DNA of 64,000 bases from Candidatus Nomurabacteria bacterium (GTDB lineage: Bacteria > Patescibacteriota > Saccharimonadia > Saccharimonadales > JAGQNJ01): positions 276,258 to 340,257 of the forward strand of contig CP060231.1 of the NCBI GenBank assembly GCA_023898625.1, written 5' to 3'. The translations under genes and the position numbers were made by a program. Shown here in pieces: positions 22,749 through 57,411 of this stretch (positions are counted from its first letter, which is position 1; each line of letters opens with the position of its first letter). The notes under the pieces were generated by a model, which saw only the letters and a program-made list of their open reading frames with translations, ran no database searches and was not told where the DNA came from.

Positions 22749-22782
22749 GAATTGTCCCATTTCCCGACTAACAAGGAGTATG

Positions 22783-31590: not shown

Positions 31591-31660
31591 AGTAGGAGAT
31601 CTTTGGGGCGTGCAGCCCGGCAACACCGCCAAACGCACATAAACCATCGGAGGAAAAACG

Positions 31661-32257
31661 ATGGACGTTAAGATCTTGGAAGAGCTTGCCCCCTGGGCGG
31701 GGAAGGTCCCTCCCACGAAGGAGAGTGCGGAAGGAAGCGAGAGCTTCCTGTACCGCGGTACAGTCAGCTACCGGCCGTGGGGCTATGAAGCCCTTCGGCA
31801 AAGGCATTTTCTGGTGATAGTGCCAGAAAATGGCCTGCCGTATGCGGTGGAGTGGGACGATAGTCTCACTCCTGTCGTGGAGGCCTTTATCGCCTCCGGG
31901 GTTGTGGCGCCGATGGCGCCCTCCTACCGCATCTCTCTCGACGACGTGGTCGGGTGGAGAAGAGCATGGGGTTCAGATTGGATCCCAACAAGCCGTGAGG
32001 GCGTATTGCCCATAACGGCATTGCCACAACACGTGGCTGATGCCCTGGACAGGGACGGCGGATGGACAGACATCCGTGTCGTTGGCAATGAAGTGCGGGC
32101 CACCCAGGACTACCGCTCTGGCGGCTCCTGCGGTCGTTCGCAAGAGATGGTCTTCGCTACCTTGAAGACAACCTCCGAAGGAGTGAGGTTCAAGACCACC
32201 GTCCATTCTGTCGCGTATGAGGACAGCCTGGGCAGAAAGAGAGGTACATTCACCTAA
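31661..32257 (+). CDS. hypothetical protein, compositionally foreign (high GC)
   Basis: ATG preceded by a GGAGG RBS (31648-31652). The first 150 nt hand-count to about 59% GC. The antisense ORFs on the other strand are typical high-GC artefacts. Confidence 0.6.
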   Translation: MDVKILEELAPWAGKVPPTKESAEGSESFLYRGTVSYRPWGYEALRQRHFLVIVPENGLPYAVEWDDSLTPVVEAFIASGVVAPMAPSYRISLDDVVGWRRAWGSDWIPTSREGVLPITALPQHVADALDRDGGWTDIRVVGNEVRATQDYRSGGSCGRSQEMVFATLKTTSEGVRFKTTVHSVAYEDSLGRKRGTFT

Positions 32258-32570
32258 AAACAAAAAGGCCTCGCATTAGCCTTACATCACCGCAAACAAT
32301 GCGCCTACAACGGTAAGGCACCGTAAAGAACTATTGCTGTTGCAACCCGGCAACGATAAATCACTCTGTTAGTAATAGCAGACATGAAGCAACCCATGCT
32401 TTGTGAGGGGATTTGCTTGATTCGGCACAAGCTAGAGTGTACGTTCCTGTACAGGGAATATGGCACAATACCGAGGTCATTGTGGTAGACCGCTCTTTAG
32501 AGCAAAGGCCACCCGGTTTTCTCGAATCCCGGATTGTAGCACACTCAGTGCTATGGTAAGTCGAGTTTCA

Positions 32571-32645
32571 CCCCAATCATCGCTCACCAGCTCAGGTGAG
32601 TTCGCTGAACAAGCGATTGATAGATGATTGGGGTATTTTTATTTG
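32571..32645 (+). terminator. branched intrinsic terminator
   Basis: 11-bp closing stem CCCCAATCATC/GATGATTGGGG (32571-32581/32623-32633). It encloses two small hairpins and is followed by TATTTTTATTT. Confidence 0.55.
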
Positions 32646-32649
32646 TGCT

Positions 32650-33510
32650 CTAGTCTTCAAATTCGAGGGCGTTTTTGATGCGTGAAATGCTTTGCTCTGG
32701 GTTATTGCTATTAAACCAAAGCACTTTCCAGCCTTTTTTGCTGGCAGTCATCAAGTTTGGCCGACTGTCGTCTATCAACAGTATTTCTGATGGCTGACAA
32801 TTACTCCGATCTTCTGCTTCCTCATAGATTGCTTCTTCTGGCTTTATTGCTCCGACTTCTGAAGAATCGATAATAACGTCGTAGTTGATATTAGGCACAA
32901 GATTGTGGTCAATTAATTCATTCAAAAATCCGGGCATTATATTGGTCATTAACCCGACATGGTAATTTTCAATAGCCCAAGATAATAAATCGTCCATTCC
33001 CTGAACTAGCTCTACTTCTTCTGTGTAGTACTTAGCCCAGTCAATATTATCTATATTAAGATCATTTGCGAATCGTTTATTAAACTCCTCTATGGATATT
33101 TCACCCCTGCAAACCATATCGTTATGTTGCCAAAAGGCCATTTCTACAACATCTGGCGATAAATCATATTCTTCGCTAATTCGCTCCAGAGCGCGGTGAA
33201 AAAACTGAACCAAACATCCGTTGACGTCAAAATACACAAAACGCACCCCAGATTTACTGACCTTTTTTGGCACAATTGGTGGGAATCCAGAGCCTTGAGA
33301 TTCTGATATACCCAACAGTTCGTTTAAGGTTAACCCAAGCACACTGGCTATCCGTTGAATAGTAAAAATTGACGGAGCCTTAATAGCACCTCGCTCAATC
33401 TTTGCCAGGGTAGAATATGAAATATCTGCTTTTTGGCACAACGTTTGTTGTGTCAATCCTGCCTTTATTCTGGCTTCTTGTAATTGTTTTCCGAGACCCA
33501 CCTCGTCCAT
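32650..33510 (-). CDS. XRE-family HTH domain fused to HAD-like hydrolase domain
   Basis: N-terminal HTH (LTQQTLCQKADISYSTLAKIERG). C-terminal HAD-like motifs (YFDVNGCLV ... LLIDDS). Confidence 0.65.
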   Translation of the reverse strand: MDEVGLGKQLQEARIKAGLTQQTLCQKADISYSTLAKIERGAIKAPSIFTIQRIASVLGLTLNELLGISESQGSGFPPIVPKKVSKSGVRFVYFDVNGCLVQFFHRALERISEEYDLSPDVVEMAFWQHNDMVCRGEISIEEFNKRFANDLNIDNIDWAKYYTEEVELVQGMDDLLSWAIENYHVGLMTNIMPGFLNELIDHNLVPNINYDVIIDSSEVGAIKPEEAIYEEAEDRSNCQPSEILLIDDSRPNLMTASKKGWKVLWFNSNNPEQSISRIKNALEFED

Positions 33511-33574
33511 ATAAACCTAATATTACCAGTTGTCTAGCTAAAAGGGAAGAGTAAACTAGCATTAAATGGCTAGT

Positions 33575-33757
33575 TTACTTAAGCATGTTTTCGATAGTGT
33601 TAAGAATTAACAGCATAATTACGAAGGCAAAGATTCCGGCGATTCCAGCAGTTATTGCCGAATTTTGAGCATTACCTCCGGTGCTACACATAATTTTAGT
33701 ATAGACCCATGTTCCAGCACCAACAGCAAACAATAGCGCAACAACAACAGGAGGCAT
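33575..33757 (-). CDS. small two-TM membrane protein
   Basis: 60 aa, hydrophobic. Its start overlaps the stop of the upstream HIT gene. Confidence 0.4.
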   Translation of the reverse strand: MPPVVVALLFAVGAGTWVYTKIMCSTGGNAQNSAITAGIAGIFAFVIMLLILNTIENMLK

Positions 33758-34173
33758 TAGACGTTCTCCATGGTTAGCTTTTTTGCCATTTCGGCCAATA
33801 CGGTGTGATCTGGTTCGGCAGACATATTCTGTTTGGCATTATATTCATTTATCGTATTAAATGGGTAGATTTTTACATGAGCATGTGGAACATCAACCCC
33901 CTCAATCCTTGTACCAACAAATTTAGTACCTAGTTTATTGCGTAGGTGTATAGATACTTTTTTGGTGGTTGACATCAGGGCTTGGTAGTATTCATCATCC
34001 AAATCCCACACAAACTCCAGCTGAATTTTGGGCACCACCACCGTTTGGCCAACAACTGCCGGATAGATATCTAAAAAAGCCAGGGTTTTATCATCCTCAT
34101 AAACCTTATAAGACGGTATTTCACCTTTGATTATCTTTGCAAAAACACTTTCTTCTGCCATATCTAATGACAA
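33757..34173 (-). CDS. HIT-family (histidine triad) protein
   Basis: HIT fold sequence (FAKIIKGEIPSYKVYEDD...). The triad region reads HAHVKIYP, with the third His replaced by Lys. Confidence 0.7.
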   Translation of the reverse strand: MSLDMAEESVFAKIIKGEIPSYKVYEDDKTLAFLDIYPAVVGQTVVVPKIQLEFVWDLDDEYYQALMSTTKKVSIHLRNKLGTKFVGTRIEGVDVPHAHVKIYPFNTINEYNAKQNMSAEPDHTVLAEMAKKLTMENV

Positions 34174-34190
34174 TATAGCATAATTAACGC

Positions 34191-35198
34191 ATGGATATTA
34201 TGAAAATAATACTACTAGCACTGGTCAAGGTATTAATATTGGCTTGTTTGGGTCTGTTCATTATAGGCGTTATTTTTAAGGTTACTTTTGGAAATCAAGA
34301 TTTTATCAAGCAGTCGCTGAATAATAGCGGGTTGTATTCAACAGTAGAGAAGGGGATAAAACAACAAATAGCCACCCAAGTAGCATCGGTCAGCAATACA
34401 ACAACACTAAATACAATAATTAGCCAAGCAATCGACAAATCAGTAACTAGTGATCTTATACAACAAAATATTGAAAGTACCATTTCTAATGCTTACGCTT
34501 GGTTGAGTGGAGAAAATACAAATCTCGTCATCTCTTACAACGTAGACGATGCACAAGCTACTTTCTTACAAGAGGTTACTGATGGATTACGTGAAAGAGC
34601 TAAAACCTTGCCCAAATGCTCCAGAAAAATACGGCCAACTACAAATGACATATTCACCATTAACTGTATCCCTCCAGGCACAAACATAGAAGGGGAAATT
34701 TTGGAAGCGCAACAACAGTTCAACCAGCAAATAGCAACTCAACCACAAAAGGTAGACTTAACAAAAATAACCAATAATTCTAGTTCACCAATAAACAGAT
34801 TGCCGAATGTTTACAAAATTCTAACCTTGCTTCCTCTAATCTCAATATTGCTAATTGTGTTGCTACTCATATTTGAGTTACTTTTGTCACGACCAAGATA
34901 TCGTGCATTACGAACAGTTGGCATAGCTTCAATTTTGTGTGGAGTTCTTTGTTTGATATGCAGATTTATTACTCCTATTATTCTTTATGAAAGGATAAAA
35001 CATATCTCATTAAACACTGATGTGGCAGATTTTTCTTTACCTGTTCAAAAAATTTTTCAGGACATAGTAAGTCAGATAAGCTCAACACTACTAACGATAG
35101 GTGTATCACTTATAGCTTTAGGTTGTTTGTGTCTAGGGTTCTATATCTTTATCAGAAAAACCAATACCAGAAATGAACTACCTAAGAACATTCCTTAG
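34191..35198 (+). CDS. hypothetical membrane protein
   Basis: N-terminal TM, a large extracytoplasmic region and C-terminal TMs. Confidence 0.5.
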   Translation: MDIMKIILLALVKVLILACLGLFIIGVIFKVTFGNQDFIKQSLNNSGLYSTVEKGIKQQIATQVASVSNTTTLNTIISQAIDKSVTSDLIQQNIESTISNAYAWLSGENTNLVISYNVDDAQATFLQEVTDGLRERAKTLPKCSRKIRPTTNDIFTINCIPPGTNIEGEILEAQQQFNQQIATQPQKVDLTKITNNSSSPINRLPNVYKILTLLPLISILLIVLLLIFELLLSRPRYRALRTVGIASILCGVLCLICRFITPIILYERIKHISLNTDVADFSLPVQKIFQDIVSQISSTLLTIGVSLIALGCLCLGFYIFIRKTNTRNELPKNIP

Positions 35199-35314
35199 TT
35201 CCACCTCTTTGTTGTGCCCACTAACATTACTAGAATCCGTTTTTTTGGTTAAAAGTTGAGACCAAAACAGAACCAAACCTATAGCCTGTTACAAAGGAAA
35301 GAAGCAGTCAAAGT

Positions 35315-36361
35315 TCAGGACTGTGACGTACTGGAGACATATGCCTTTAGAGCAGGCTCAAGCGTTACGACATGCGAACCACCATAAACAACAAATGGAC
35401 TTTTGCCACTATTGTATGCTTCTAGAATATGATTAAAGATTACCCTATCTCTCATCTCCATGCTCAGTTTAGCCACCTCATTGAGCCTATGTTCACCAGA
35501 CCAGTTAAGTTTATCCATCGTTATCTCGGAAATATCATCAGCAAATTCAGGATTAATTGCAACTTTGCCATCCACTAAAACCAGCAGATCTTTATTGTCT
35601 AGAATAGGTTTGTATAATTTATTGAGGCTTGGGAGAATCTGCGCGACTTTGTTATTCAATTCGACTTTCAGCTCATCAAACTTGCCACTTTCTATAATCT
35701 CCTGCTTTTCGGCCTCTGAAAAGGTATAAAATCCATCAATACCTAAGGTTGCGGCGTGATGGTTGATATAGCCTGCCAGAAAATCAGTCTCACCACTAGA
35801 TACCTGTGTCTCGAGACCACGAGCAACATATAAAGCCAGAAGCTCCTCTCTACTAACACCAAGTTGTTCCATAACAGCCACAACTTCTGATTCAGTAGGC
35901 TCGCCAGGTATAGCGGGTACGTTCTCTTTGTTGGCCAGGTGTTGAATTAAACCAGAATCGGTGGCCTGGGTAATCGCTTCATCTCTATCCGTAAATAGTC
36001 TTTCGTCGCCCTCATAAATCACACATCTTCTTTCTGGTGGAGTAATAGCTATGTAGTCAGCAAAGGCCGCTTCGGTATCTCGCATACTTTCTGCTTCAGG
36101 ACGACTCTCGTGTCCCGATACGACTTGCCCAGTATCTGGATCAATCTTGATTGAGGCAACCAATGTTATAGATTTGTCATCATCACCAATATTTACAATT
36201 TGAACTTTGCCATCTGCTATCCGCTCTTGATTAGCTTGTTCATACTCAGCACTTCCTATCGGATTGTAGTGCTCCCAGGCCAGTTCCTCTTGCGGATTTA
36301 CCATATATTCTGAAGTTTGTTCCTGTTGGATTGTTTCGTCTAGGTTGTGCGTATCTCCCAT
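35315..36361 (-). CDS. hypothetical acidic protein
   Basis: 348-aa ORF. No confident domain. Confidence 0.5.
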   Translation of the reverse strand: MGDTHNLDETIQQEQTSEYMVNPQEELAWEHYNPIGSAEYEQANQERIADGKVQIVNIGDDDKSITLVASIKIDPDTGQVVSGHESRPEAESMRDTEAAFADYIAITPPERRCVIYEGDERLFTDRDEAITQATDSGLIQHLANKENVPAIPGEPTESEVVAVMEQLGVSREELLALYVARGLETQVSSGETDFLAGYINHHAATLGIDGFYTFSEAEKQEIIESGKFDELKVELNNKVAQILPSLNKLYKPILDNKDLLVLVDGKVAINPEFADDISEITMDKLNWSGEHRLNEVAKLSMEMRDRVIFNHILEAYNSGKSPFVVYGGSHVVTLEPALKAYVSSTSQS

Positions 36362-36557
36362 TAGCCTATTATACTCCTTTAGGGTACTTGTAGCAGATCA
36401 ATTAGATATTTAATGGGCAGACTGAGCTTGTTTGTATGAAAAACAAGTATGGTTTCTATTACGCAATAGTTTCACTTCCTGTAATAAAACATTAGGTTTG
36501 CTTTACAAAACAAAAAAGCAGTCCTTTTAGGCGACACTTCCACAAGAAAGCCAACTT

Positions 36558-36576
36558 CTGGCGGAAGGGGTGGGAT
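36558..36576 (-). repeat. 19-nt duplicate of the tRNA-Ser(CGA) 3' end (att-like scar)
   Basis: CTGGCGGAAGGGGTGGGAT at 36558-36576 is identical to 36697-36715, the 3' acceptor/T-stem of the tRNA plus 1 nt. The similarity extends a few more nt with one indel. Confidence 0.7.
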
Positions 36577-36697
36577 GGTAGATATCCGCCTGTTTGCAAG
36601 CTAAAGCTTGCGGGGGATATACGAACCGCATTGGGTTCAAATCCCTTGTTTTCTTTACAGAAAACAAAAAACTTACCCTTTTGGCAAGTTTCCTTCC

Positions 36698-36789
36698 TGG
36701 CGGAAGGGGTGGGATTCGAACCCACGGTACCAGTTGCCCGGCACAACTGTTTTCGAGACAGTCCAGTTCAACCACTCCTGCACCCTTCC
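36698..36789 (-). tRNA. tRNA-Ser (anticodon CGA), CCA encoded
   Basis: Manual fold: 7-bp acceptor GGAAGGG/CCCTTCC, anticodon arm ACTGT-CTCGAAA-ACAGT, long variable arm, T-loop GGGTTCGAATCCC. Confidence 0.9.
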
Positions 36790-36881
36790 GTTAGCTACAC
36801 TATAAACTATTGCTGTTACCTCTGTAAATATGCTAATATACTTATTGTTGCAAATCCATAAGAATGTATATGTATAGTTTT

Positions 36882-36958
36882 GCACCCGTAGCTCAGCTGG
36901 ATAGAGCGTTGGCTTGCGGAGCCAGAGGCCACAGGTTCGAATCCTGTCGGGTGTACCA
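36882..36958 (+). tRNA. tRNA-Arg (anticodon GCG), CCA encoded
   Basis: Manual fold: acceptor with G1-U72, D-arm GCTC/GAGC, anticodon loop TTGCGGA, T-arm ACAGG-TTCGAAT-CCTGT. Confidence 0.85.
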
Positions 36959-38164
36959 TTCTAGACGGAGAGCCTCAAGAAGGCTCTTTTTCATCTGTTG
37001 AGACATTGTTCTAACCTTTTCTATCTCAGCAACGAAGTGTTTTGTGTTTTCCTGCAATGGTAATAGCCATTCGTTAGGTGTTATTTGCAGTTTTCCGTCT
37101 AAAAGCACTGGGTTCTGACCAATTACTAACAGTATTTCTTTCTTATCAGCTATATCACCGTTTACGAACTTAGCGTTAGCGTTCATGAACTTACTTATTA
37201 GATTAGTCATATAGTCGTACCAGCTCTCAGTGTTTTCATTACTGGTAGCCTGTTGCTTATGCAGTTCTTTTAATTCAGCCTTGAGCTTTGCAGATTTCTC
37301 TATAAAGTCTTTTTCTTCTACGAGCTTGCGAGTAGACATGTCTAACAGGGTATCTAGCTGGTCTTTTAAGCCCCTTATAGCTTGCTCCTGCATAGTTTCT
37401 ACACTCTTACGCTCTGGTATCTCAGCTTGTGCCATTTGGTTAATAGCATCCATGCTTCAATCATAGAGTTCTGGTATGAGTTCCCAGTTATTCAATTCAT
37501 CTACACATTCTGTAAATAGCTCATCTTCGGTTTTATAACCATACTTCTTAATCTGGCCGCAAGGGCGTTTACCAGTACAGTGACAGTAAGTATTTACATG
37601 TGTAACACCCTTAGAGTTAGTGCGTTCCTTGCTTTGAGCCGTAATCATACAGCCACACTCACCACAGCGTATAAAGCCACGTAGCACGAATTGTTTACGA
37701 GTTGCGAAACGCTTACCACCATGACGACCTAGTAATAGTTGGATTTTGTCGTACTCCTCTTGGGTCATTAAAGCTGGAAAATCTGCTACATACAATTTGT
37801 CTTCATCATAAGGGTCAGGCACCCAACCTGCGTAACGAACGTTACGGAACATGTAATAGAGCGATGAGCGGCCAAGTGGACCGCCACTCTTTTTCTTACG
37901 CTGAACCGTGCGATAGCCCCATTCATTATTCATAATATCTAAGATTTGCTGGACGCTGTATTCGCCTGTAAGCATTAAATCTACAGCCTGACGGAGTAAT
38001 GGAAAGCGTTCAGGGTCTTTGTATACGGTTTTATTTATACGGTCATTCAAGTAGCCCTCTGAGGCTACGCCAGTAATGCCACCAATCTTACGCTTCTTCT
38101 CATTACAACGCTTCACGTCCTTACTCAGCTTCGCTGAGAAGTATTGGGACTGGCTCATAGTCAA
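36893..38164 (-). pseudogene. large serine recombinase remnant: catalytic domain missing, split by an in-frame stop
   Basis: 37457..38164 encodes the recombinase domain plus a zinc beta-ribbon (CGECGCMITAQ...CHC). 36893..37453 encodes the coiled-coil C-terminal part. No N-terminal resolvase domain is present. The last ~22 codons run antisense through tRNA-Arg. Confidence 0.6.
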
Positions 38165-38534
38165 ATTTATCTATAAACCATATGTTGTCGTACTCTCTAT
38201 GTGCTGGATCAGTCTCATGCCAGTCACCCCAGACAGTATTTGCCCACTCTTTGGGTATGTTAGGGTTCACTGACTTGGCAATCTCAAGTTCTTCCTGAGC
38301 GTCTATTACTTGGTTGCGATACCAGTTTTCATCAGAACGAGTTTCAATTACCTCTGCATTGGTTAATGTATTTAATGCCCGTTCTTCACGACTAGCATTC
38401 TTAAAATTATCTGTTTTTGAGAGTTTAGCGTCCCACTCAAAAACCCAGCGTTCATCAAAGAAATCGGTGCCGTTGAAGTACAACGTATTCAGCTTTGTAA
38501 CCACTAATTGTAGCCATTCGTTATTATCTGTCAT
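38121..38534 (-). CDS. hypothetical protein (island-borne)
   Basis: 137-aa ORF overlapping the recombinase remnant by 44 nt. Not resolvase-like. Confidence 0.4.
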   Translation of the reverse strand: MTDNNEWLQLVVTKLNTLYFNGTDFFDERWVFEWDAKLSKTDNFKNASREERALNTLTNAEVIETRSDENWYRNQVIDAQEELEIAKSVNPNIPKEWANTVWGDWHETDPAHREYDNIWFIDKFDYEPVPILLSEAE

Positions 38535-38640
38535 TGGTGTTAGTATATGCGTCCAATAAAGCTAACTCAAATACCAGTGATTAGACCAATTTGAGATAAT
38601 AGATATATAGGGTAAGTACAAAAACAAAAGGAGTCTTATT

Positions 38641-38871
38641 ATGTTTAGCAATCCAGTGGGAAGACCCACAAAAATGAATATCAGAACGATGGTGAAGTTG
38701 GCTGACGCACTGAAGAACAACTACAGCCTGACTGACGCTTGTAAGTGGGCTAGGGTTGGCAGAACCACCTACTACCGACACATAAATAATAACGTGGTCT
38801 TCGCAACTAAGATGAATTATGCGATAGAGTGCCGTGATAAAGTGTCATTTAATTTTGGCACACTCTCCTAG
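38641..38871 (+). CDS. small HTH DNA-binding protein (resolvase/terminase-small-subunit-like HTH)
   Basis: GRPTK...SLTDACKWARVGRTTYYRH helix-turn-helix pattern. 76 aa. Confidence 0.5.
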   Translation: MFSNPVGRPTKMNIRTMVKLADALKNNYSLTDACKWARVGRTTYYRHINNNVVFATKMNYAIECRDKVSFNFGTLS

Positions 38872-39190
38872 TTCAACTTGCTGATTCGTACACGACTATA
38901 ATAAAAGTAGTGTTTCATAATTGGTAGCTCTCTGATGGTGGAAAATGGCGTTGAGGGGTCAAAAATCTGAAAAAATAATGCGTAACGATACGTAGTCAAA
39001 ATCAACCCATTTAGGTGAACGGGATATAGTGCCCTCTGTAAGCGTTCCAGGGGTCGTAGGTGAGGTTTTAAGGCAAAAGTTGAATAAAGTACCGTGTGGA
39101 AAATAAGAAGTACTTTGACATCATTTTACTCATTGACAAGCTTATGCTTTGGTTTCCCGTAACAAGTGTTTATAATTTACACTTAAGAAT

Positions 39191-39883
39191 ATGAGTGAGA
39201 GCCTACACAAACCAACTATTGCTATATTAGCCTCAGGAAGTGGCTCTACAGCCGAGACATTTATCCACGCTACTCAAGATGGTCGTGTTGATGCAGAAGT
39301 CGGTCTAATAGTATGCAATAACCCACCAGAAAAGGCAGGAATATTTGCTAGGGCTTCTAGGTTAAATGCACTCTATGGGCTTGATGTTGAAACTATAGAA
39401 ATAAGTGGTCGTACGCACCCCGATGGCAACGTGGGGCGTGGACAAACACTTAGCGAGTCATCTGCTATATGCGAGCGTATCAGTAACGGTGGCTTTGCTC
39501 ACGTAGCTCTTATGGGTTATATGAAGATGGTTCGCGGTGAACTCATTGAGGAGTACGGCTGGCAACCAATTTACAGTTCTATCTATCAAGCAAGAATGAC
39601 TAACACACACCCAGGTCCACTGCCAGAAACAGAAGACACGTACGGCATACACACTTCTGAACAAGTACTAGAGCTTGGCATGTCTGCTTCACGTCACACA
39701 GTACATCTTGTGGCAGATGGAATAGATAGGGGTCCAAAGATTGCTGAACACCCTGTGGAAGTTATTGAAGGCGATACTGCACAGAGTTTGTTTGATAGAG
39801 TTCAAGTAGTAGAAAAGGCAGCATTGCCATACGTTATAGGTAAGTTCCTGCAGGAACAAGGAGGTTATCTTGGCAATTCATGA
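39191..39883 (+). CDS. purN: phosphoribosylglycinamide formyltransferase-like
   Basis: IAILASGSGST N-terminal motif. Formyltransferase core with NTHPGPLP (variant of NIHPSLLP). 230 aa. Confidence 0.75.
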   Translation: MSESLHKPTIAILASGSGSTAETFIHATQDGRVDAEVGLIVCNNPPEKAGIFARASRLNALYGLDVETIEISGRTHPDGNVGRGQTLSESSAICERISNGGFAHVALMGYMKMVRGELIEEYGWQPIYSSIYQARMTNTHPGPLPETEDTYGIHTSEQVLELGMSASRHTVHLVADGIDRGPKIAEHPVEVIEGDTAQSLFDRVQVVEKAALPYVIGKFLQEQGGYLGNS

Positions 39884-42707
39884 GATTAGAGTCACACCTA
39901 TCGAGGGCGACCCAATTGGACACGAAGCACAGCAAGAAGCGGAACGCACACTTGGCTTAGACAGCATAGAATCAATTCGCACAGCGAAAGTATATCGTGT
40001 TCAGGGTGTGAGCGAAGAAGAAGCACACACGTTAGCGGGACAATTGCTCACAGACCCTGTGAGTGAGCAATACAGTCTTGACGAACCAGTAGGTTTCGAG
40101 ACTCCTCACGTTGTAGAAGTGGCATATAAGCCTGGTGTGATGAACCCAGAAGCATCTTCAATCATGAAAGCCGCTCAAGACCTTGGGATTAGCCAACAAG
40201 CCGTTGATTCTTCAAGGGAGTATGCGTTTTTCGGAGATGTAGAGCCAACTCAAGTCGACGAAGTGGTTGGACGATTACTAATGAACAAAACAGTTGAACA
40301 TGTTGTTACTGAAAAACCATCGTCTCTAACTTTTGAGGGGAATGTTGGACCTATCAGCATAGTTCCTATTAGAGAGGCTTCAGAGCCAGAGTTAGCAGAG
40401 CTATCAAAGGACAAGTTATTTCTTAATGATGAGGAGATGGGTGTCGTTCAGAAGCATTTCCGAAAGCTTGACCGTGATCCAACTGATGCAGAGCTTGAAA
40501 TTATTGCTGCACGTTGGAGTGAGCATTGTGGTCATAAGACGTTCAATGCAAAAGTTGTAGTTGATGGCGTTGAGAAAGAACCGCTCTACACACGTATTAA
40601 GAATGCGGCTAAAGAGCAGTTCGGTGATTTAGTAGTATCAGCATTTGGTGATAATTCAGGTGTTATGAAATTTTATGAGGGTCAAGCTATTTGTGGCAAG
40701 GTTGAGACACACAACAGCCCGTCAGCTATTGAGCCGTACGGTGGTGCAATGACGGGTAGTGGTGGTGTGTTCCGTGACATAATGGGAACTGGTCAGGGTG
40801 CTAAGACAATCATTTCTACTGATATGTTTTGTTTTGCTCCGCCAGACCTTGACGAGAGTCTTTTGCCTTCTGGCACCTTGCGCCCCGATTACCTACAAAG
40901 ACGAGTTGTTCAAGGAGTGCGAGACTATGGTAATCGTATGGGCATTCCAACGGGAAACGGCTCTGTACATTATCACGAAGATTTTAGAGCCAAGCCTACT
41001 GTAATAGTAGGAGCATACGGAATCATGCCAGAGTCACGTGCAGAAAAAGGCGAACCATTGGTCGGTGACCTAGTTGTTATTATTGGTGGCAAAACAGGTC
41101 GTGACGGTATACACGGTGCTACCTTCTCGTCAGGCGAAATGACTGACCGTACAGCTAATGTGAATTCAAGTGCAGTTCAAATTGGAAACGCAATTGAAGA
41201 AAAGCGTATGTTCGATGCTTTAATTGAAGCAAGAGATTTAGGATATATTCGTGCATTAACCGACTGTGGTGCTGCGGGATTCTCATCTGCTATCGGTGAA
41301 ATCGGAGAGAATATCGGTTTAACAGTAGATATTAGCAAGGCACCACTTAAATACCCAGGACTTGCCCCGTGGGAAATCTGGCTTAGTGAATCACAAGAAC
41401 GTATGGTTGCGGCAATCTCACCAGACAACATAGAGGACTTTCTTGCCGTTAGTCGTAAATATAATGTTGAATCCACTGTACTCGGTGTGTTTGATGGGAG
41501 TTATACCTTAACCGTGAATTACGGTGAACAAAATGTTGCAGAACTTGATTACGAGTTCCTGTCTGGCGGTCTACCGCAACGTGTTATGCAAGCACATTGG
41601 AAACGAGTTGATGTACCTGAAGTAAGTCCTGACATTCCACAAAACGAACAAGAGTGGGTTGATAGGCTTAAGGCTGTTCTCTCTCACGGTAATGTTTGTT
41701 CCAAAGAGCCAATAGTTAGACAATATGACCACGGGGTTCAAGGTGGCAATGTTGTTTCTCCTTTTGGAGGCGTAAAGCAAGATGGACCAAATGACGCTCT
41801 GGTCGTACGACCTATGCTTGATAAGCCTTATGGTGTTGTTCAATCCCACGGGATGAACCCAATACTTAATAGGTTAGACCCATTTGAAGGAACAGTCTGG
41901 GCTATTGCTGAGGCTGCAGCAAATTATGTTTCTGCTGGCGGCAACATTGATGAAGCAGCAGCAGTTGGTAACTACATTTGGCCGTTCCCAGATGAAGAAG
42001 CTATGGGTTCACTAGACCGTTCTGTTGACGCTGCTGTAGAAATGATGCAACGGCTGAAGCTTCCTGTTATATCAGGCAAAGACAGTCTCTCATCAACCTA
42101 CCGAGGCAAAGACGGACAAGTTATCAAGATTCCGCCCGTTTACACAATGTCTATATTTGGTCGCATACCTGACGTAGAGAAGACTATGACAAGTGACATA
42201 AAACAAGCAGGATCAACCCTTGTCTTAGTTGGAAATCTAGGCGAAGGAATGGCGGGGTCAGCTTATTATGATATTGCTGGTGGGAGTAGCAACAATATAC
42301 CGCTTGTTGATAAAGAAACACTACCAGCAGTGCTTGGTTCCGTACATCAAGCTATAGTCGGTGGCAAAGTCCTTGCTTGTCACGATATAAGCGAAGGTGG
42401 TGTAATCTCGGCTGTTGCAGAAATGTGTTTTGGTGGCAATGTTGGCGTAGAACTTGAGCCTAATAATGTATCAGTCTCTGAAATGGATAAGTTCCTGTTT
42501 AATGAAACGGCTGGCTGTTTTGTTGTGGAAGTTGAAAGTGATGAAGTAGCACAAGAATTATTCAGCAATGTTCCATACCAAAAGCTTGGTCAAACAACTA
42601 CTGATGAGACTATTCAGGTCCGTGAGCAAAATGGAGTCGTCTTTACTGTAGGTACGGACGAACTTAAGCGTGCATGGCAAGCACCTATGAAAGGGATTTT
42701 TCACTAA
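39870..42707 (+). CDS. purL: phosphoribosylformylglycinamidine synthase subunit PurL with two N-terminal PurS-like repeats
   Basis: TTG start 5 nt after an AAGGAGG RBS. The first ~150 aa hold two PurS-like modules. The rest is small-PurL type (AIR-synthase-like repeats, SESQERM motif). 945 aa. Confidence 0.85.
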   Translation: MAIHEIRVTPIEGDPIGHEAQQEAERTLGLDSIESIRTAKVYRVQGVSEEEAHTLAGQLLTDPVSEQYSLDEPVGFETPHVVEVAYKPGVMNPEASSIMKAAQDLGISQQAVDSSREYAFFGDVEPTQVDEVVGRLLMNKTVEHVVTEKPSSLTFEGNVGPISIVPIREASEPELAELSKDKLFLNDEEMGVVQKHFRKLDRDPTDAELEIIAARWSEHCGHKTFNAKVVVDGVEKEPLYTRIKNAAKEQFGDLVVSAFGDNSGVMKFYEGQAICGKVETHNSPSAIEPYGGAMTGSGGVFRDIMGTGQGAKTIISTDMFCFAPPDLDESLLPSGTLRPDYLQRRVVQGVRDYGNRMGIPTGNGSVHYHEDFRAKPTVIVGAYGIMPESRAEKGEPLVGDLVVIIGGKTGRDGIHGATFSSGEMTDRTANVNSSAVQIGNAIEEKRMFDALIEARDLGYIRALTDCGAAGFSSAIGEIGENIGLTVDISKAPLKYPGLAPWEIWLSESQERMVAAISPDNIEDFLAVSRKYNVESTVLGVFDGSYTLTVNYGEQNVAELDYEFLSGGLPQRVMQAHWKRVDVPEVSPDIPQNEQEWVDRLKAVLSHGNVCSKEPIVRQYDHGVQGGNVVSPFGGVKQDGPNDALVVRPMLDKPYGVVQSHGMNPILNRLDPFEGTVWAIAEAAANYVSAGGNIDEAAAVGNYIWPFPDEEAMGSLDRSVDAAVEMMQRLKLPVISGKDSLSSTYRGKDGQVIKIPPVYTMSIFGRIPDVEKTMTSDIKQAGSTLVLVGNLGEGMAGSAYYDIAGGSSNNIPLVDKETLPAVLGSVHQAIVGGKVLACHDISEGGVISAVAEMCFGGNVGVELEPNNVSVSEMDKFLFNETAGCFVVEVESDEVAQELFSNVPYQKLGQTTTDETIQVREQNGVVFTVGTDELKRAWQAPMKGIFH

Positions 42708-43490
42708 ATGAGCAACCTAGAAGTATGCGTACTAAAGACGGACGGTATTAACTGTGATGAAGAAATGGCGAATGCTTTTCAAGTAGCTGGGGCTACACCT
42801 GAAACCGTACATATTAACCAACTGCGAAGTGGCGAACGTCAGCTTGACCAGTACGGTATTCTAGCAATACCAGGGGGTTTCTCTTACGGAGATGATATTG
42901 CTTCAGGTAAGGTGCTGGCAACAGAGCTTACGTCCTATCTATCTGACCAGTTACAAGATTTTGTCGATAAAGGTAAGCCTGTTATCGGAATCTGTAATGG
43001 CTTTCAGGTGCTTGTTAGGACTGGCTTGTTGCCAAATCGCAAGCTGAATGAACAACAAGTAACTCTTGCTGATAATGAAGTTGGAAGATTTGAGTGTCGC
43101 TGGATTGACCTAGCAGTTGGTCGGTCAGCGTGTAAGTTTGTAAGTCCAGAAGATTTTGCAGAACAACCAATTCCAATGCAAACGGCTCACGGTGAAGGTA
43201 GATTCTTTGGTGGTGAAGATGACATTCGGGAGCTAAAAGAAAACGGACAGTTTGTTTTTCGTTATACTACGCCTGACTTAGGACAGCCGAGTGGCTATCC
43301 TGAAAATCCAAATGGTGCAGTAGACGATATTGCAGGAATTTGTGACCCAAGTGGCTTAGTGCTTGGTATGATGCCACACCCTGAACGCTCAGTGGCTGCT
43401 TTTCACCCACACCGAGTACGCACAGAAGCTGCACGAAACGCAGCAAACACAATTTTTAGTAATATCGTTACTTACGCAAAGGAGATGTAA
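42708..43490 (+). CDS. purQ: phosphoribosylformylglycinamidine synthase glutaminase subunit
   Basis: Class I glutamine amidotransferase motifs (PGGFSYGDD, GICNGFQ, MPHPER). Confidence 0.9.
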   Translation: MSNLEVCVLKTDGINCDEEMANAFQVAGATPETVHINQLRSGERQLDQYGILAIPGGFSYGDDIASGKVLATELTSYLSDQLQDFVDKGKPVIGICNGFQVLVRTGLLPNRKLNEQQVTLADNEVGRFECRWIDLAVGRSACKFVSPEDFAEQPIPMQTAHGEGRFFGGEDDIRELKENGQFVFRYTTPDLGQPSGYPENPNGAVDDIAGICDPSGLVLGMMPHPERSVAAFHPHRVRTEAARNAANTIFSNIVTYAKEM

Positions 43491-44623
43491 TGACTGAACG
43501 AAGAGGACCGATACAGGATGTAAATATTGAGCTTGGTGATGATGTTTCTAAAATGCTGTATGAAGCTTCAAAGCAAACCCACGACAACCGACCAGGCTTG
43601 CTTGTTGAGTTTCACGAATCATTTTCTGGGCTACGAGCAATTCCAGGCACGATGCTTAAAGACGTAGATAATATGTATCTTAATCTTGCATTTGATGGTG
43701 TCGGAACAAAGGTTGAAGTATCAGAAAGGCTTGATGACCATTCAGTTGTAGCACACGATTTATTTGCAATGGTATGTGATGACGCAGTTGTTCGGGGAGC
43801 TGAACCAGTTGCGATAGGCTCAATCTTAGATGTACGGCAGCTTAATGACACAAAACACACTAGAACGGCAGTTAGACAACTATCACAGGGCTATGTTGAA
43901 GCAGCTAAGGCGGCTGGTGTAGTGGTCGTTAATGGTGAAGTTGCCGAACTTGGGGATAGAGTTGGTGGTTATGGGGATTTCAATTATAACTGGGGCGCTA
44001 CGGTACTTTGGTTTGCTCATAAGGACAGAATACTTACGGGTCATGAGATTCAGCCTGGCGATTCACTAGTAGGTCTTGCTGAACACGGTTTCCGCTCAAA
44101 TGGCATTACAGACGTAAGAAAAGCTATGCTGGAACACTACGGACCACAATGGCAAGACGTAGTAGTTAAAGAACTCGGCGAACTTTCATTAGGTAAACTT
44201 GTACAGAAACCATCAATTATTTATTCACGATTCATATCGGAACTTACAGGTGGCTATGACATTGATAAAGAGCCTAAGGCTGTGGTAAGCGGTGTGGCAC
44301 ACATTACTGGTGGTGGGCAGCCAAGTAAGCTAGGCCGAATGCTTGAGCCGTCAGGACTCGGCGTTACTATTGACACACCAATTGAGCCACCACGCATAAT
44401 GACGGAAGTGCAAAAGCTGCGAGGCTTCTCCGACGAAACAGCATACGGTAAATGGCATTTGGGTTCTGGTATGGTTATTGCCACTTCTGAACCAGAAAAA
44501 GTACTCGCAGAAGCAGAAAGCTTTGGACTATCTGCACAGACTATTGGGCAAATCACAGACGAGCCAGGTATCCGTATCAAGAATCGTGGTGCAGTTCAAG
44601 ATTCAGAGTGGCTAAGCTTCTAA
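43490..44623 (+). CDS. purM: phosphoribosylformylglycinamidine cyclo-ligase (AIR synthase)
   Basis: DGVGTK motif and PurM N/C domain architecture. Start overlaps the purQ stop (TAATG). Confidence 0.85.
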   Translation: MTERRGPIQDVNIELGDDVSKMLYEASKQTHDNRPGLLVEFHESFSGLRAIPGTMLKDVDNMYLNLAFDGVGTKVEVSERLDDHSVVAHDLFAMVCDDAVVRGAEPVAIGSILDVRQLNDTKHTRTAVRQLSQGYVEAAKAAGVVVVNGEVAELGDRVGGYGDFNYNWGATVLWFAHKDRILTGHEIQPGDSLVGLAEHGFRSNGITDVRKAMLEHYGPQWQDVVVKELGELSLGKLVQKPSIIYSRFISELTGGYDIDKEPKAVVSGVAHITGGGQPSKLGRMLEPSGLGVTIDTPIEPPRIMTEVQKLRGFSDETAYGKWHLGSGMVIATSEPEKVLAEAESFGLSAQTIGQITDEPGIRIKNRGAVQDSEWLSF

Positions 44624-44685
44624 AGTAGAAAGCTTATGCTTTGTATCTGTTGGTCGGTAGAGCATAATTAGATTAGGTACTAATT

Positions 44686-45683
44686 ATGATCATAAACCAA
44701 CATTTCGTAGATTTACTATCAACTCTTACGCCTACAGCTTCGGAGAAAACAGGCTATGCTTCCCACAGGACTTCAATTGAAGCGAAGCTTGAGTCTTCGT
44801 TTAATGTAACGTTCACCATGGAAACAGGTTCATTTAGAAGTGGTACGGGCGTGAGATACCACACCGACTTAGATGTACTTGCCTCAATACCTTCCACTTA
44901 TCAAAAAGACAATTCTTACAATATGTTATTGGCTATTAAAAAGCCTTACAAGAACGGTATGGTGAAAGCGGAATATACATCAGAACACCATCTGTGGTCT
45001 GTGCCTTTAGTGGGAACAAGACCATTGAAATCACACCTGGATATTATAAGTATCAGACTGATTACCGCTATAACGTTTACAAAATCCCAGATTTTGATGG
45101 TGATTGGCAAATTGCAACACCGTCAGCACATATAGCCTACGTTAATGGCGTGAACAACAGGTTGGATAAGAAAGTTAAACACGTTATTCGCTTAATCAAA
45201 GATATTAAATATGCACATAATATCCCTATATCTTCGTTTTATCTTGAGATGAGGACAGCAAAGCATTGCGATGATGAAACATTCATATCTTACGCAGAAG
45301 ACGTACACAATACGCTCAATAGGCTCGTTAATGACGAGCTGGCGTTAATGCAAGACCCTGTAGGAATCGCAGGATATATTGAGCCTTGCAGTACTGACGC
45401 AAAGAAGACCGAAGCACTTTCAAATCTTACATCTGTCAGAAATCGTGCTAAATGGGCTATTGAAGAAGAAAAGGCTGGGAATCACACAAAGGCTCTTGAA
45501 TGGTGTTTTATTGAAGTTGACTCAAAAGAAGGCGGCGTCAAAACGTTGCGAGAAGGATTATCAGAGCTTGTAGCACGACAACAAGAAATAAACGGAACCG
45601 CATACATACCTTCACCAAAGGCTCGTGAAAGAGCTGAGAAAAACATAAAGAATGGCCGTCAGAACTACGAGGTTGATGAGTAA
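44686..45683 (+). pseudogene. SMODS/CD-NTase-like nucleotidyltransferase interrupted by a -1 frameshift
   Basis: Frame 1 (44686..45135) carries GSFRSGTGVRYHTDLDV (the GS...DxD NTase core). The continuation (W..ATPSAHIAYV...IRLIKDIK...SFYLE) is in the -1 frame from about 44943 (ORF 44994..45683). The shift maps to T-AAA-AAG at 44937-44943. Confidence 0.6.
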
Positions 45684-45902
45684 TTTTAAGCAAAGTATAT
45701 AGGTAAGCGTGGTGGGTAGTGTTTTATAGGGCGTTTGAGCCATTATAAGCAAGGAACAGTGACCTAACCTGCTCTAGTATGCTGTACCAATTAGTATTTA
45801 CCATAACATCGAGTATTATTCTCATTATTTTAACCATAACTTGTATTGACAAACGGAAAATACTGCGAGACAATTACTGTAAATAGCAATCAAGAAATAA
45901 TT

Positions 45903-46487
45903 ATGGATAATCAAAACCAGCAACAAACACCAAAACAGAATCGGATGCCAATAGTTGTTATTTTATTGGTTCTCTTGGTAGCTATAATTATTGTGGCTGT
46001 TTATGCGTTTAATAAGATTGGCAATCGTCCTCAACAGACCGACAACAGTCAAACCAGCGCTACAGAACAAACAATTAATAAAACCGCGGAACTTTCAACA
46101 GATCCTAGTATCATGACAAGCAAGAGTGGCGAGGTTGTAACATTCTCCATTTGGCTAGATACCGGCAATCAAAAGGTTAGTACCGTAGAGGCTATTCTTA
46201 ACTACCCAGTCGATCAATATGACTTTGTTAGTATTGATGACTCTGAAAGTGCATTTTCAATTAATGCAGAGGCAACAGGACAAAATGGAATTGTAACCAT
46301 TGCACGAGGACAAATAGATGGTGTATCAGGAAAAGTTTTAGTCGGAAAGGTCAATTTAAAAACAAAAACATCCTCCGGACAAGGAAACCTAACATTTTCT
46401 GATGATTCAAAAGTCCTAACCTTATCAGATGATCCACAAAATATTCTAAATGAAACATCAGGGGCAACCCTACAAATAGAAAACTAG
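45903..46487 (+). CDS. membrane-anchored cohesin-like domain protein
   Basis: ORF track 45846..46487; ATG 45903 (MDNQNQQ) preferred. One TM. The C-terminal domain resembles a cohesin module. Confidence 0.55.
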   Translation: MDNQNQQQTPKQNRMPIVVILLVLLVAIIIVAVYAFNKIGNRPQQTDNSQTSATEQTINKTAELSTDPSIMTSKSGEVVTFSIWLDTGNQKVSTVEAILNYPVDQYDFVSIDDSESAFSINAEATGQNGIVTIARGQIDGVSGKVLVGKVNLKTKTSSGQGNLTFSDDSKVLTLSDDPQNILNETSGATLQIEN

Positions 46488-46498
46488 GAGACAAGTTC

Positions 46499-48043
46499 AT
46501 GAATACCCAGCCAGGTTCACACTTTAAAAAACGAACACCTTTCATTATTGTTACGTTACTGGTTGGGATTGTTGGCTGTGTTATCCTGCTACAAAGCTAT
46601 GCTGCGGTCCCAAATCCTCCCTCCGTATATTTAACTCCAGAAAATACCGCCAATGGCCCTGGTAAGCAAGTAAGAATTCAAGTTAGAGAAAACAGCGGAA
46701 CAGCCGCAATAAACGCAACCGAGGTTGCTATTACATACCCTGCAAACTTGATAGAGTTTAATTCGTTTGATGACACCGGAAGTTTATTTTTGACTAAACC
46801 TGACCCTGTAATTACGAGCGGAAAAGTCGTCCTAAGTCGAGGTATTAACGCTGGTACCAGCAATTTAACAGGCGACCAACTAATAACTACTTTAGTCTTT
46901 ACAACAAAAACTTCGTCTGGAACCGCTAATCTTGCTATTGTTGCAAATGAAACTTCTGTACTTAACGCCACAACTTATCAAAACATTATTACAGGAAGTG
47001 GTCGAACCCAAGGCGCAAACGTAGTTGTCGATGCCACTCCGCCAACTGTATCGGTGACGGGTACATCAAATAATCAAGTTCTGTCTAGCAATTCTACTGT
47101 TCCTATAAATATCAATACTACAGATGCAACTGGCGCAACAAGACTAGATATACGTATTGATGGCAAAACTGTTTTGGCTCCAAATATAACCAGTCCAACC
47201 TACATCTTTCAATGGAATACGACTGGGTTAAGTATTGGCAACCATACTATCCAAGTTCTAGCTAGTGATTCATACGGTAATACTGGCCAATCTGCAATCA
47301 CTACGGTTTCTATTGCCGACAAGACACCACCAACAGTCGCCCTAACTGTACCATCAAGTCCACTAAAAGGTGTTGTTACGTTAAGTGCAACTGCTTCTGA
47401 TAGTGGCGGTTCTGGATTAAATAGAGTAGAGTTCTATGCTGGGTCAACCCTTATTGGTTCAGATAATACAAGCCCTTATCAAGTATCCTGGAATACTAAT
47501 GATGGAAAGTACGCCGATGGTTCATATAGTATCACAGCAAAAGCCTATGATAACGCCAACCCCTCGAACACTTCTACTAGTACACCATCTAATGTCACGG
47601 TTCAAAATACCGACAAAACACCTCCTTCAGCCCCAACAAATCTTAATGTTAAATCGGTCACCATGAATAGTGTCAATCTGGCTTGGAATGCTAGCTCTGA
47701 CAATGTTGGAGTAACGGGGTACCAAGTTAGTAGAAATGGTACGGTAATAAATACCGTAGCAGGAACATCATTTACAGACAACAACCTTACTCCAGGGACA
47801 AGCTATTCGTATTCTGTAGTTGCAATCGACGCAGGAGGCAATAAGTCCGCTCAAGTCAGCGTAAATGCAACAACTCTCGCTCAAAAGATCGGGGACTTCA
47901 ATCAAGATGGCAAAGTATACCTAGATGACCTAGCAGGACTGCTAGCAAATTGGAAAAAGGCAAATCCACTATACGACCTAGATAAGAAGGGGTCTGTTGA
48001 TATTGTTGACCTTGCTATATTCCTTGCAAACTATGGCAAGTAA
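46499..48043 (+). CDS. surface protein: cohesin-like domain, two Ig-like repeats, FN3 domain, C-terminal dockerin
   Basis: AGGAG RBS and a signal/TM segment. FN3 (PPSAPTNL...WNASSDNVGVTGYQV). Dockerin EF-hand-like duplicate (DFNQDGKVYLDDL ... DLDKKGSVDIVDL). Confidence 0.7.
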   Translation: MNTQPGSHFKKRTPFIIVTLLVGIVGCVILLQSYAAVPNPPSVYLTPENTANGPGKQVRIQVRENSGTAAINATEVAITYPANLIEFNSFDDTGSLFLTKPDPVITSGKVVLSRGINAGTSNLTGDQLITTLVFTTKTSSGTANLAIVANETSVLNATTYQNIITGSGRTQGANVVVDATPPTVSVTGTSNNQVLSSNSTVPININTTDATGATRLDIRIDGKTVLAPNITSPTYIFQWNTTGLSIGNHTIQVLASDSYGNTGQSAITTVSIADKTPPTVALTVPSSPLKGVVTLSATASDSGGSGLNRVEFYAGSTLIGSDNTSPYQVSWNTNDGKYADGSYSITAKAYDNANPSNTSTSTPSNVTVQNTDKTPPSAPTNLNVKSVTMNSVNLAWNASSDNVGVTGYQVSRNGTVINTVAGTSFTDNNLTPGTSYSYSVVAIDAGGNKSAQVSVNATTLAQKIGDFNQDGKVYLDDLAGLLANWKKANPLYDLDKKGSVDIVDLAIFLANYGK

Positions 48044-48200
48044 ATTTAGATTTATCCAAAATAATAGACGATATCTTTCAGGTGTTTGACTATAACTACG
48101 TGTCTTTGATATACACATAACGCAGAACACGAATCTTTACGCTTAGCCAGTATAAATATTAAATCAATACAGTGAAGGGTTTTTGAGTTTGGATTTTAAG

Positions 48201-53672: not shown

Positions 53673-53749
53673 AATATTAGGTATTTTCCTTTCGTTATTG
53701 GATTAATTACACTTTACTATATTTTTATAAGCATTTTCAAGTAGTTATT

Positions 53750-55908: not shown

Positions 55909-55914
55909 GATAAA

Positions 55915-56394: not shown

Positions 56395-56486
56395 CTTCGT
56401 ATATTATACAAAAAATATGGTTTATTACATTACTAATAAATCACCAGTAATGATATATTGTAACTACAGATTCAAGAATAAATACC

Positions 56487-57347: not shown

Positions 57348-57411
57348 TATATATTGCTATTAAGGTAAGCTATAAACTATAATGAACAATGTTAACTAAA
57401 CTGCTAAAGCT

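Follow-up and report, generated by a model that had tools for sequence, protein, structure and literature searches.

The window analysed here, a 64,000-nucleotide (nt) stretch of contig CP060231.1 (GenBank assembly GCA_023898625.1, positions 276,258 to 340,257), belongs to a member of the Saccharimonadales deposited as Candidatus Nomurabacteria bacterium. Positions 36959-45826 of the window form an accessory island that some strains of the species carry and at least one lacks. This island is very probably the fixed remnant of a small integrative element that was driven by a large serine recombinase, sits at the 3' end of a tRNA-Arg(GCG) gene, and carries a Saccharibacterial purine operon, purN-purSL-purQ-purM, as its cargo. 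A first-pass annotation, made from the sequence alone, had described a tRNA-Arg-flanked island with steps 3-5 of de novo purine synthesis. That description is borne out by an insertion/deletion difference between conspecific strains with an edge at the tRNA 3' end, by the same block at another tRNA-Arg gene, and by membership of the recombinase in a family that targets tRNA genes.

Occupied and empty alleles

An empty site was found in L106 (ENA ERZ28655790), a conspecific metagenome scaffold recovered by an exact-protein look-up of the left-flank gene (35315-36361). The reverse complement of L106 matches the window at 99.8% identity on the left (1-5885 against 31075-36958) and at 99.96% on the right (5975-8326 against 45827-48178). 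These flanks and the identical flank protein place L106 in the same species as the window, and both tRNAs are present in it. Homology stops at 36958, which is the last base of tRNA-Arg(GCG), and from there L106 carries 89 unrelated nt in place of the 8,868 nt of the window. L106 is not a collapsed mis-join, because its 89 nt have no other occurrence in the window. The occupied allele (L010) was found in the same sample as the empty one, and occupied strains are 99.8-100% identical over the island. With both alleles in one metagenome, strain variability is directly testable with existing data.

The same block occurs at a second tRNA site in L011, a Saccharimonadales genome according to GTDB, whose PurSL is 94% identical to that of the window. 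L011 shares window positions 36959-37894, 38596-44622, and 45696-45790 at approximately 85% nt identity, and has no counterpart of 37894-38596. Its block sits after tRNA-Arg(TCT), which tRNA-Gly precedes; the tRNA bodies differ from those of the window, and the flanks of the two blocks differ on both sides. The sequence GTACCA ends the tRNA of the window (36953-36958) and forms the left junction, or attL core, and identity between the window and L011 is 100% directly after it. At the other end, an attR-like core GTACCA at 45784-45789 repeats the tRNA 3' end. Right-end homology between the two genomes stops just past ...ATGCTGTACCAA, with both copies terminating after GCTGTACCAA and unrelated flanks beyond. 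The features of the locus are as follows; P0306 is an intact relative of the recombinase, L012 a further genome with the operon, and ORF stands for open reading frame, HTH for helix-turn-helix, and aa for amino acids.

36882-36958, + strand: tRNA-Arg(GCG), intact (ARAGORN; Rfam 68.4 bits)
36959-45826: island as delimited by comparison of occupied and empty strains; 8,868 nt here, 89 unrelated nt in conspecific L106
36926-38170, - strand: large serine recombinase pseudogene (tblastn with P0306, Pfam Recombinase PF07508, PHROG 95 integrase)
38121-38534, - strand: 137-aa ORF without Pfam match, with a marginal PHROG match only
38641-38871, + strand: 76-aa HTH protein (PHROG matches, E 3e-6 and 2e-5)
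39128-39190, + strand: conserved operon upstream region (alignment of the window, L011, and L012)
39191-39883, + strand: purN-like gene for a divergent GAR formyltransferase, 230 aa (Pfam PF00551 Formyl_trans_N, E 2e-17)
39870-42707, + strand: purS-purS-purL fusion, synthetase subunit of FGAM synthase, 945 aa (PurS, linker, AIRS, AIRS_C; TIGR01736, 529.2 bits)
42708-43490, + strand: purQ, glutaminase subunit of FGAM synthase, 260 aa (Pfam GATase_5, E 3e-69; TIGR01737, 193.8 bits)
43490-44623, + strand: purM-like gene for a divergent AIR synthetase, 377 aa (AIRS/AIRS_C; TIGR00878, 151.3 bits)
44686-45683, + strand: SMODS-type nucleotidyltransferase pseudogene, frameshifted (SMODS 26.2 bits; phrog_18746)
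45696-45790, + strand: conserved right-end segment, 81% identical to L011, terminating in GCTGTACCA
45790-45826: 37 nt between the attR-like core and resumed identity with the empty-site strain

These gene calls agree with the first-pass inventory of tRNA-Arg(GCG), a decayed serine recombinase, a small HTH protein, the purN-purSL-purQ-purM operon, and a frameshifted gene, and also with its remark that purF, purD, and the later steps are missing from the window, as no further pur gene was found in the 64 kb. The operon had been called tightly coupled, and indeed purN and purSL overlap by 14 nt, purSL and purQ abut with 0 nt between them, and purQ and purM overlap by 1 nt. The 186-aa ORF at 36893-37453, formerly taken for an orphan, belongs to the recombinase as its C-terminal part; the true orphan is the 137-aa ORF.

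A metagenome scan with the full tRNA-Arg(GCG) returned one contig, L094, which is unrelated to the window apart from an identical tRNA-Arg(GCG) and bears, at 2573-2840, two repeats of the 3' end of this tRNA (18 nt and 10 nt). These repeats look like att-type scars of past integration at tRNA-Arg(GCG). Relatives of the left-flank gene yielded no other empty site, as contig L095 ends before the tRNAs, and L096, L097, and L099 are not syntenic; no housekeeping genes are common to the fetched flanks and the window. Homologs of the left-flank gene are usually the second of two paralogous genes of ~430 aa (L097 1807-5105, L099 5365-8556, L096 8746-11266). The pairs are often preceded by a small HTH gene like the 76-aa one of the island and lie near pilus or VirB4-like genes, forming a recurrent variable module.

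The recombinase and its family

The gene that adjoins the tRNA has the sequence of a pseudogene, rather than an active member, of the large serine recombinase family. Window positions 38170 to 36926 align by tblastn with residues 124-543 of P0306 (550 aa) in a single frame, at 52% identity and with one stop, a TGA at 37457-37459 where P0306 has Trp. This single codon divides the 186-aa ORF from a 235-aa recombinase piece. Residues 1-123 of P0306, the catalytic serine domain, have no match in the window, and neither does PF00239, the model of that domain, which is present in P0306. The recombinase of the window is dead because its catalytic domain is gone and one TGA nonsense codon interrupts the remainder. 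In the expected place of the catalytic domain lies the 137-aa ORF, which is absent from the L011 copy. What is left matches PF07508 (E 7e-5) and PHROG 95 integrase (E 4e-25), the latter over positions 212-437 and 460-565. The P0306 alignment takes in the Cys-rich segment, and the Recombinase domain, zinc-ribbon, and C-terminal region of the family are all represented.

An exhaustive search found 3,352 recombinase homologs, of which the intact ones measure 530-570 aa, P0306 being the best of them. The 3' end of the recombinase gene in the window reads antisense into tRNA-Arg(GCG), such that its last codons are tRNA antisense; a similar arrangement holds in contig L102, where the intact P0306 gene and tRNA-Gly(TCC) overlap by 57 nt in antisense. 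The tRNA-adjacent terminus of the element is conserved in L102 (TTyTAGACGkAGAGCCTC...ATCTGTTG), and GCACCA recurs 9.07 kb off, 13 nt ahead of tRNA-Arg(TCT). This layout, with its antisense tRNA overlap, conserved terminus, and pair of GCACCA copies, implies a family directed at tRNA 3' ends, whose insertion leaves a core repeat of 6 nt. The L102 element itself (2439-11671, ~9.07 kb, at the tRNA-Gly(TCC) 3' end) is seemingly intact, and none of its seven cargo ORFs has a PHROG hit. Its 550-aa serine recombinase is a candidate tRNA-end-specific serine integrase, from a lineage poor in genetic tools.

An intact serine recombinase in L099 was also considered as a family member and rejected, being only ~28% identical over 80 aa. 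It is a different large serine recombinase (558 aa), encoded at L099 1155-5600 together with an HTH_17 partner and small ORFs. The segment stands between ychF and a gene pair that adjoins ychF in L096, and has the look of a further small insertion.

Between the window and L011, the synonymous divergence (dS) of the recombinase parts is 0.62-0.63 and that of the pur genes 0.64-0.82. This equal divergence implies that recombinase and operon diverged, and travelled, together as one unit. For the recombinase parts, the ratio of nonsynonymous to synonymous divergence (dN/dS) comes to 0.06-0.15, and the two copies bear different inactivating lesions. Such a pattern points to a recombinase that was functional for most of the divergence from L011 and was then lost independently in each lineage.

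The purine operon and the other island genes

The PurL part of the fusion scores 529.2 bits with TIGR01736 (cut-off 525.75), and PurQ scores 193.8 bits with TIGR01737 (cut-off 177.8), so both pass. The catalytic residues N138, H140, and D179 of PurN are invariant in an alignment of five divergent homologs, and the DGVGTK and HITGGG motifs of PurM are conserved. The purS-purS-purL gene of the first-pass annotation is confirmed as a fusion and has hundreds of full-length homologs, but its two PurS modules are weak. These modules (residues 14-70 and 82-143) reach at best 25.7 and 31.5 bits against cut-offs of 39-122 (TIGR00302/NF004630/NF005019) and are not significantly alike (E 0.12); only their position and a weak similarity liken them to PurS. 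PurN and PurM are 21-25% identical to their counterparts in Levybacteria (PurM likewise when compared with other Saccharibacteria), as opposed to ~55% for PurSL. Levybacteria Pur proteins used as tblastn probes did not recover purN and purM of the window, and the pur genes were called with Pfam because these probes were too divergent.

The operon is under strong purifying selection. Compared with L011 and L012, all four genes show dN/dS of 0.02-0.06 over dS of 0.64-1.6 (purN 0.04-0.06, purSL 0.03-0.04, purQ 0.02-0.04, purM 0.03), and the operon is identical or nearly so in more than 20 independent assemblies. Its products are predicted to convert glycinamide ribonucleotide (GAR) to formylglycinamide ribonucleotide (FGAR), then to formylglycinamidine ribonucleotide (FGAM), and finally to aminoimidazole ribonucleotide (AIR). 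Such a conversion would be useful only alongside the remaining pur steps elsewhere in the genome, or with supplied intermediates.

Upstream of purN, a TATAAT at 39171-39176 lies 15 nt ahead of the ATG. The exact 14-nt direct repeat AAGCTTATGCTTTG, which can form a small hairpin (AAGC-TTAT-GCTT), occurs at 39138-39151 and 44630-44643. Its copies mark both limits of the operon segment common with L012, and a partial right copy is seen in L011. The repeat was considered as an att site and rejected, its left copy lying within the upstream region conserved in all three genomes; it might serve as an operator or a terminator, or else be a trace of cassette capture. No Rfam match to a riboswitch or other RNA element was found upstream of the operon or in the right-end patch, and a scan for promoters and terminators gave counts no higher than shuffled sequence.

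The 76-aa protein, a candidate regulator or recombination directionality factor, has an HTH of the terminase-small-subunit or transposase type and is 59% identical in L011 (dN/dS 0.12). Further variable regions, those of L097 and L099, also encode homologs. Downstream of the operon, ORFs 44686-45135 and 44994-45683 match successive parts of phrog_18746 and are separated by one frameshift near 45,000. The first-pass annotation had called this a frameshifted CD-NTase-like gene; the frameshift stands, while the Pfam SMODS score of the first ORF, 26.2 bits, falls just short of the gathering cut-off of 26.5, its GS...DxD motif being intact. This pseudogene occurs in the species of the window and is absent from the L011 and L012 copies.

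Origin of the cargo

In a neighbour-joining tree of 77 PurSL sequences, the window falls beside L011, and then L012, L091, and L092, deep in a monophyletic Saccharibacteria clade. That clade is sister to Levy-/Daviesbacteria, with a separate outgroup clade formed by Pelotomaculum/Desulfotomaculaceae. Sequences of the latter (L030-L060, e.g. L032 9998-13614) come from a lone purSL-purQ pair with the same fusion at 54-57% identity, and form the sister clade to all Candidate Phyla Radiation (CPR) PurSL. In P. propionicicum, selA and an L,D-transpeptidase gene flank this pair, which is not part of any pur operon.

The composition of the pur genes had been put forward as a sign of foreign origin, with about 46% GC against 38-41% nearby. 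The excess is real, at 44.7-45.3% against a mean of 39.7% (sd 4.2) for the other 53 long ORFs, but it carries no deviation at third codon positions (GC3). It is confined to codon positions 1 and 2 (GC1 0.59-0.63 against 0.48), the GC3 values of 0.32-0.33 are at background level (0.346, sd 0.074), and the codon-usage distance is typical. The extra GC therefore reflects amino-acid composition only. The window's housekeeping proteins, in spite of the NCBI label 'Nomurabacteria', cluster at 90% identity or above with Saccharibacteria/Saccharimonadales entries. No PurSL relative was found on IMG/VR contigs, and in the phage collection identity does not exceed 30% for the best PurSL match and 25% for the best recombinase match.

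The donor was another Saccharibacterium, as argued by the PurSL phylogeny, the GC3 values, the lack of phage relatives, and the Saccharimonadales clustering of the housekeeping proteins; a donor outside the lineage, as first supposed, does not agree with the deep nesting of PurSL. That the pur phylogeny nests within the lineage without compositional deviation counts against a foreign origin, as the first-pass annotation itself had allowed, and a complete pur pathway is not conserved at this locus across relatives. A compositional deviation is not strictly required of an island whose donor is a close relative. A number of metagenome-assembled genomes titled 'uncultured Gammaproteobacteria' (records L023, L025, L029, and others) have pur clusters that group with Levy-/Daviesbacteria; both this label and 'Nomurabacteria' are probably taxonomic mislabels.

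Purine genes in other Saccharibacteria and CPR bacteria

The first-pass annotation started from the premise that this lineage lacks the pathway. Indeed, 93% of Patescibacteriota are described as being without de novo nucleotide synthesis, with 'scattered' genes (bioRxiv 10.64898/2026.06.21.733656). Nevertheless, the same operon type was seen in at least 15 of the fetched Saccharibacteria loci, and Saccharibacteria-like PurH clusters number more than 120. PMC7786006 gives some Saccharibacteria 6 of 12 purine enzymes, and a report on the Saccharimonadia genus Ca. Lutisaccharimonas (bioRxiv 10.64898/2026.09.16.751625) describes near-complete de novo nucleotide/purine pathways. As pur genes occur in some Saccharibacteria, the premise is a generalisation and not a rule.

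The clusters vary in content and context. To illustrate, they comprise purSL-purQ in L092, purN-SL-Q in L091, and purN-SL-Q-M in L093, and in L018 a longer series, purH/purE-like/purC/purB/purN-SL-Q-M, between RNase J and FtsK. Neither purF nor purD is adjacent to the clusters of L091, L092, L093, and L018, each of which stands in a different context. In L018 (9992-12850), purSL is divided into ORFs of 601 aa and 330 aa, which may be due to a frameshift, a sequencing error, or a real split. Another Saccharibacterium (L100/L101, 792-11632) has purK, purE, purM, a 1,499-aa single-chain PurL, and purH together, and there are thus two FGAM synthase architectures within the Saccharibacteria. Loci of Levy-/Daviesbacteria carry purB, purE-like, purC, purF, purN, purD, purSL, purQ, and purM, with guaA and guaB.

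In the case of L012, whose PurSL is 93% identical, only the operon and its upstream region (39133-44622) are common with the window. There (L012 3408-9200), a tyrosine integrase (413 aa), a pair of unknown ORFs, and an HTH protein of the terminase-small-subunit type (224 aa) stand ahead of the operon, and the contig ends ~760 nt beyond the operon. The gene content points to a second, unrelated mobile context for the same pur cassette.

Weighing the explanations

A number of observations weigh against an integrative remnant with a purine-synthetic cargo. No alignment is possible between the 37 nt past the attR-like core and the 89 nt that L106 has instead of the island; the right junction is therefore not clean, and a simple site-specific insertion into exactly the empty allele of L106 is not demonstrated. 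The core repeat GTACCA is just 6-7 nt long, shared with L011 and paralleled by GCACCA...GCACCA in L102. No longer attR copy of the tRNA 3' end was found in the window or L011 with 17-25-mers at up to 3 mismatches, and because no long tRNA-end repeat was found, the island boundary was set by genome comparison. In less closely related Saccharibacteria, the operon has an ordinary chromosomal setting without a recombinase, and recombinases within 10 kb of a pur cluster were seen only in the window, L011, and L012, among ~85 loci. PurN (TIGR00639, 96.8 bits against a cut-off of 150.1) and PurM (TIGR00878, 151.3 bits against 236.35) fall below the curated thresholds of what are still their best-matching models. 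With the PurH of L018 as query, a genome contig of the window's species gave no match among the best 120, which bears on the metabolic role predicted for the operon. Finally, since the recombinase is inactive in all strains seen while the flanks of occupied and empty alleles are more than 99.8% identical, the island may have entered the species already dead, by homologous recombination.

Much of this would also suit a native, vertically inherited operon, with the dead recombinase a neighbour by chance and L106 a secondary deletion. GC3 and codon usage at background, lineage-like branching of PurSL, operons without mobile genes nearby in L091, L092, L093, and L018, and the imperfect right junction all speak for it. 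We consider it unlikely nonetheless, as the recombinase, HTH gene, operon, and right-end segment recur as one block at a different tRNA-Arg in L011, with GTACCA at both ends and flanks that differ on both sides, as a random deletion would not stop exactly at the last base of the tRNA, and as the recombinase family targets tRNA ends. A partial pathway might otherwise be a relic, a non-functional leftover en route to loss, as expected in a reduced symbiont genome. Such decay would account for the absence of purF, purD, and the late-step genes from the window, for the pseudogenes on either side (recombinase and SMODS), and for at least one strain without the island, yet it is hard to reconcile with the low dN/dS of all four genes (0.02-0.06 at dS of 0.6-1.6, with two relatives compared), with intact and translationally coupled reading frames and conserved catalytic motifs, or with the (near-)identity of the operon in more than 20 assemblies, and it is accordingly very unlikely. 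The remaining candidate, a prophage or phage-derived auxiliary metabolic genes after the manner of cyanophage purN, purM, and purL, had been raised by the first-pass annotation and is the least credible. A serine recombinase of an 'integrase' PHROG, a terminase-small-subunit-like HTH, and a SMODS-type gene are all common on phages; against them, no capsid, tail, portal, or large-terminase genes were found in or near the island, which is only 8.9 kb long, the cargo of the intact L102 relative is free of PHROG hits, and the IMG/VR and phage-collection searches returned nothing close.

Under the integrative-remnant explanation, the element would have arrived by attP x attB recombination, mediated by the large serine recombinase, within or beside GTACCA, leaving the tRNA intact, and would later have been immobilised through recombinase decay. 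The operon would be expressed from its own conserved upstream region. The remaining purine steps would be encoded elsewhere in the genome, as in the relative L018, or the intermediates would be supplied, and strains with and without the island would then differ in purine independence.

CPR bacteria are usually treated as fixed nucleotide auxotrophs, an assumption that shapes the reading of isotope-labelling and host-dependence data. Here, a part of the purine pathway lies on an island that is carried by some conspecific strains but not others and that, in related species, has been found at different tRNA genes. Host dependence for purines would vary by strain, and could be gained horizontally, if the remaining steps are encoded as well. 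A broader and considerably more tentative proposal is that purine capacity in this Saccharibacteria subclade is a strain-variable, horizontally exchanged accessory trait, the purN-purSL-purQ-purM cassette having been captured by at least two unrelated integration modules (the serine recombinase of the window and L011, the tyrosine integrase of L012), moving between tRNA sites and genomes, and supplying the middle steps that decide between synthesis and scavenging from the host. If true, this exchange would provide a concrete mechanism for the 'scattered' nucleotide-synthesis genes across Patescibacteria.

Comparison with known systems

The island is a real accessory element of a known kind with an unusual cargo. 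In common with islands and integrative (mobilisable) elements at tRNA 3' ends, it has an integrase gene at the edge facing the tRNA, an insertion point at the tRNA 3' end with the tRNA left intact, a short putative core repeat at both ends, cargo genes, and strain-level presence/absence. It differs from them in having a large serine recombinase rather than the usual tyrosine integrase, a core of 6-7 nt, no compositional deviation, a degenerate form without a catalytic domain, and a CPR host.

Tycheposons of Prochlorococcus (bioRxiv 10.1101/2020.12.28.424599) are likewise small cargo elements at tRNA genes of streamlined genomes, with an integrase at one end and a metabolic operon as 'plug-in cassette', comparable to the operon cargo here; a minority of them (27 of 937) rely on large serine recombinases, and terS-like genes are present in some. 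However, what makes a tycheposon is a tyrosine recombinase of a lineage-specific clade together with shared hallmark genes of replication; the island has neither, and Pfam and PHROG scans found no primase, helicase, or polymerase in it. Tycheposon cargo serves nutrient uptake, whereas that of the island would serve nucleotide anabolism. The likeness is one of working principle and not of membership.

Cyanophages carry purine auxiliary metabolic genes, and these resemble the island in placing a subset of the purine pathway on a mobile genome; they differ in that no phage is involved here and the genes are of host-lineage origin. As for the enzymes, the island resembles the PurS/PurL/PurQ FGAM synthase and its fused form (JGI 'PurSL') in that PurL and PurQ pass the NCBIfam equivalog cut-offs, and resembles the N-terminal domain of the single-chain large PurL in having two PurS-like modules ahead of PurL. 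The PurS modules of the window are weak in comparison, and this type of fusion was found only in other CPR bacteria and in the Pelotomaculum/Desulfotomaculaceae clade. Ca. Lutisaccharimonas and the Saccharibacteria with 6 of 12 enzymes are likewise environmental Saccharibacteria with purine genes, contrary to the general CPR picture. In the passages of the two reports that were consulted, the genes are not described as cargo of a tRNA-inserted, strain-variable element.

Other features of the window

Outside the island, positions 31550-32300 comprise ~700 nt of 58-61% GC in a genome of 39% GC, a much stronger outlier than the pur operon. A 198-aa ORF within it (31661-32257; GC3 0.67) has no Pfam or Rfam match and is conserved in every strain of the species that was seen, the empty-site one among them. 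Another ORF, of 151 aa (22747-23202; 55% GC, GC3 0.68, no Pfam match), lies between hypothetical genes and a Mur ligase gene. Positions 53268-62155 hold a cluster of small ORFs, a protein with a T4SS_pilin domain (55210-55908), a PrgI-family protein (60287-61243), and large unannotated ORFs, which together make up a type-IV-secretion-like region typical of Saccharibacteria.

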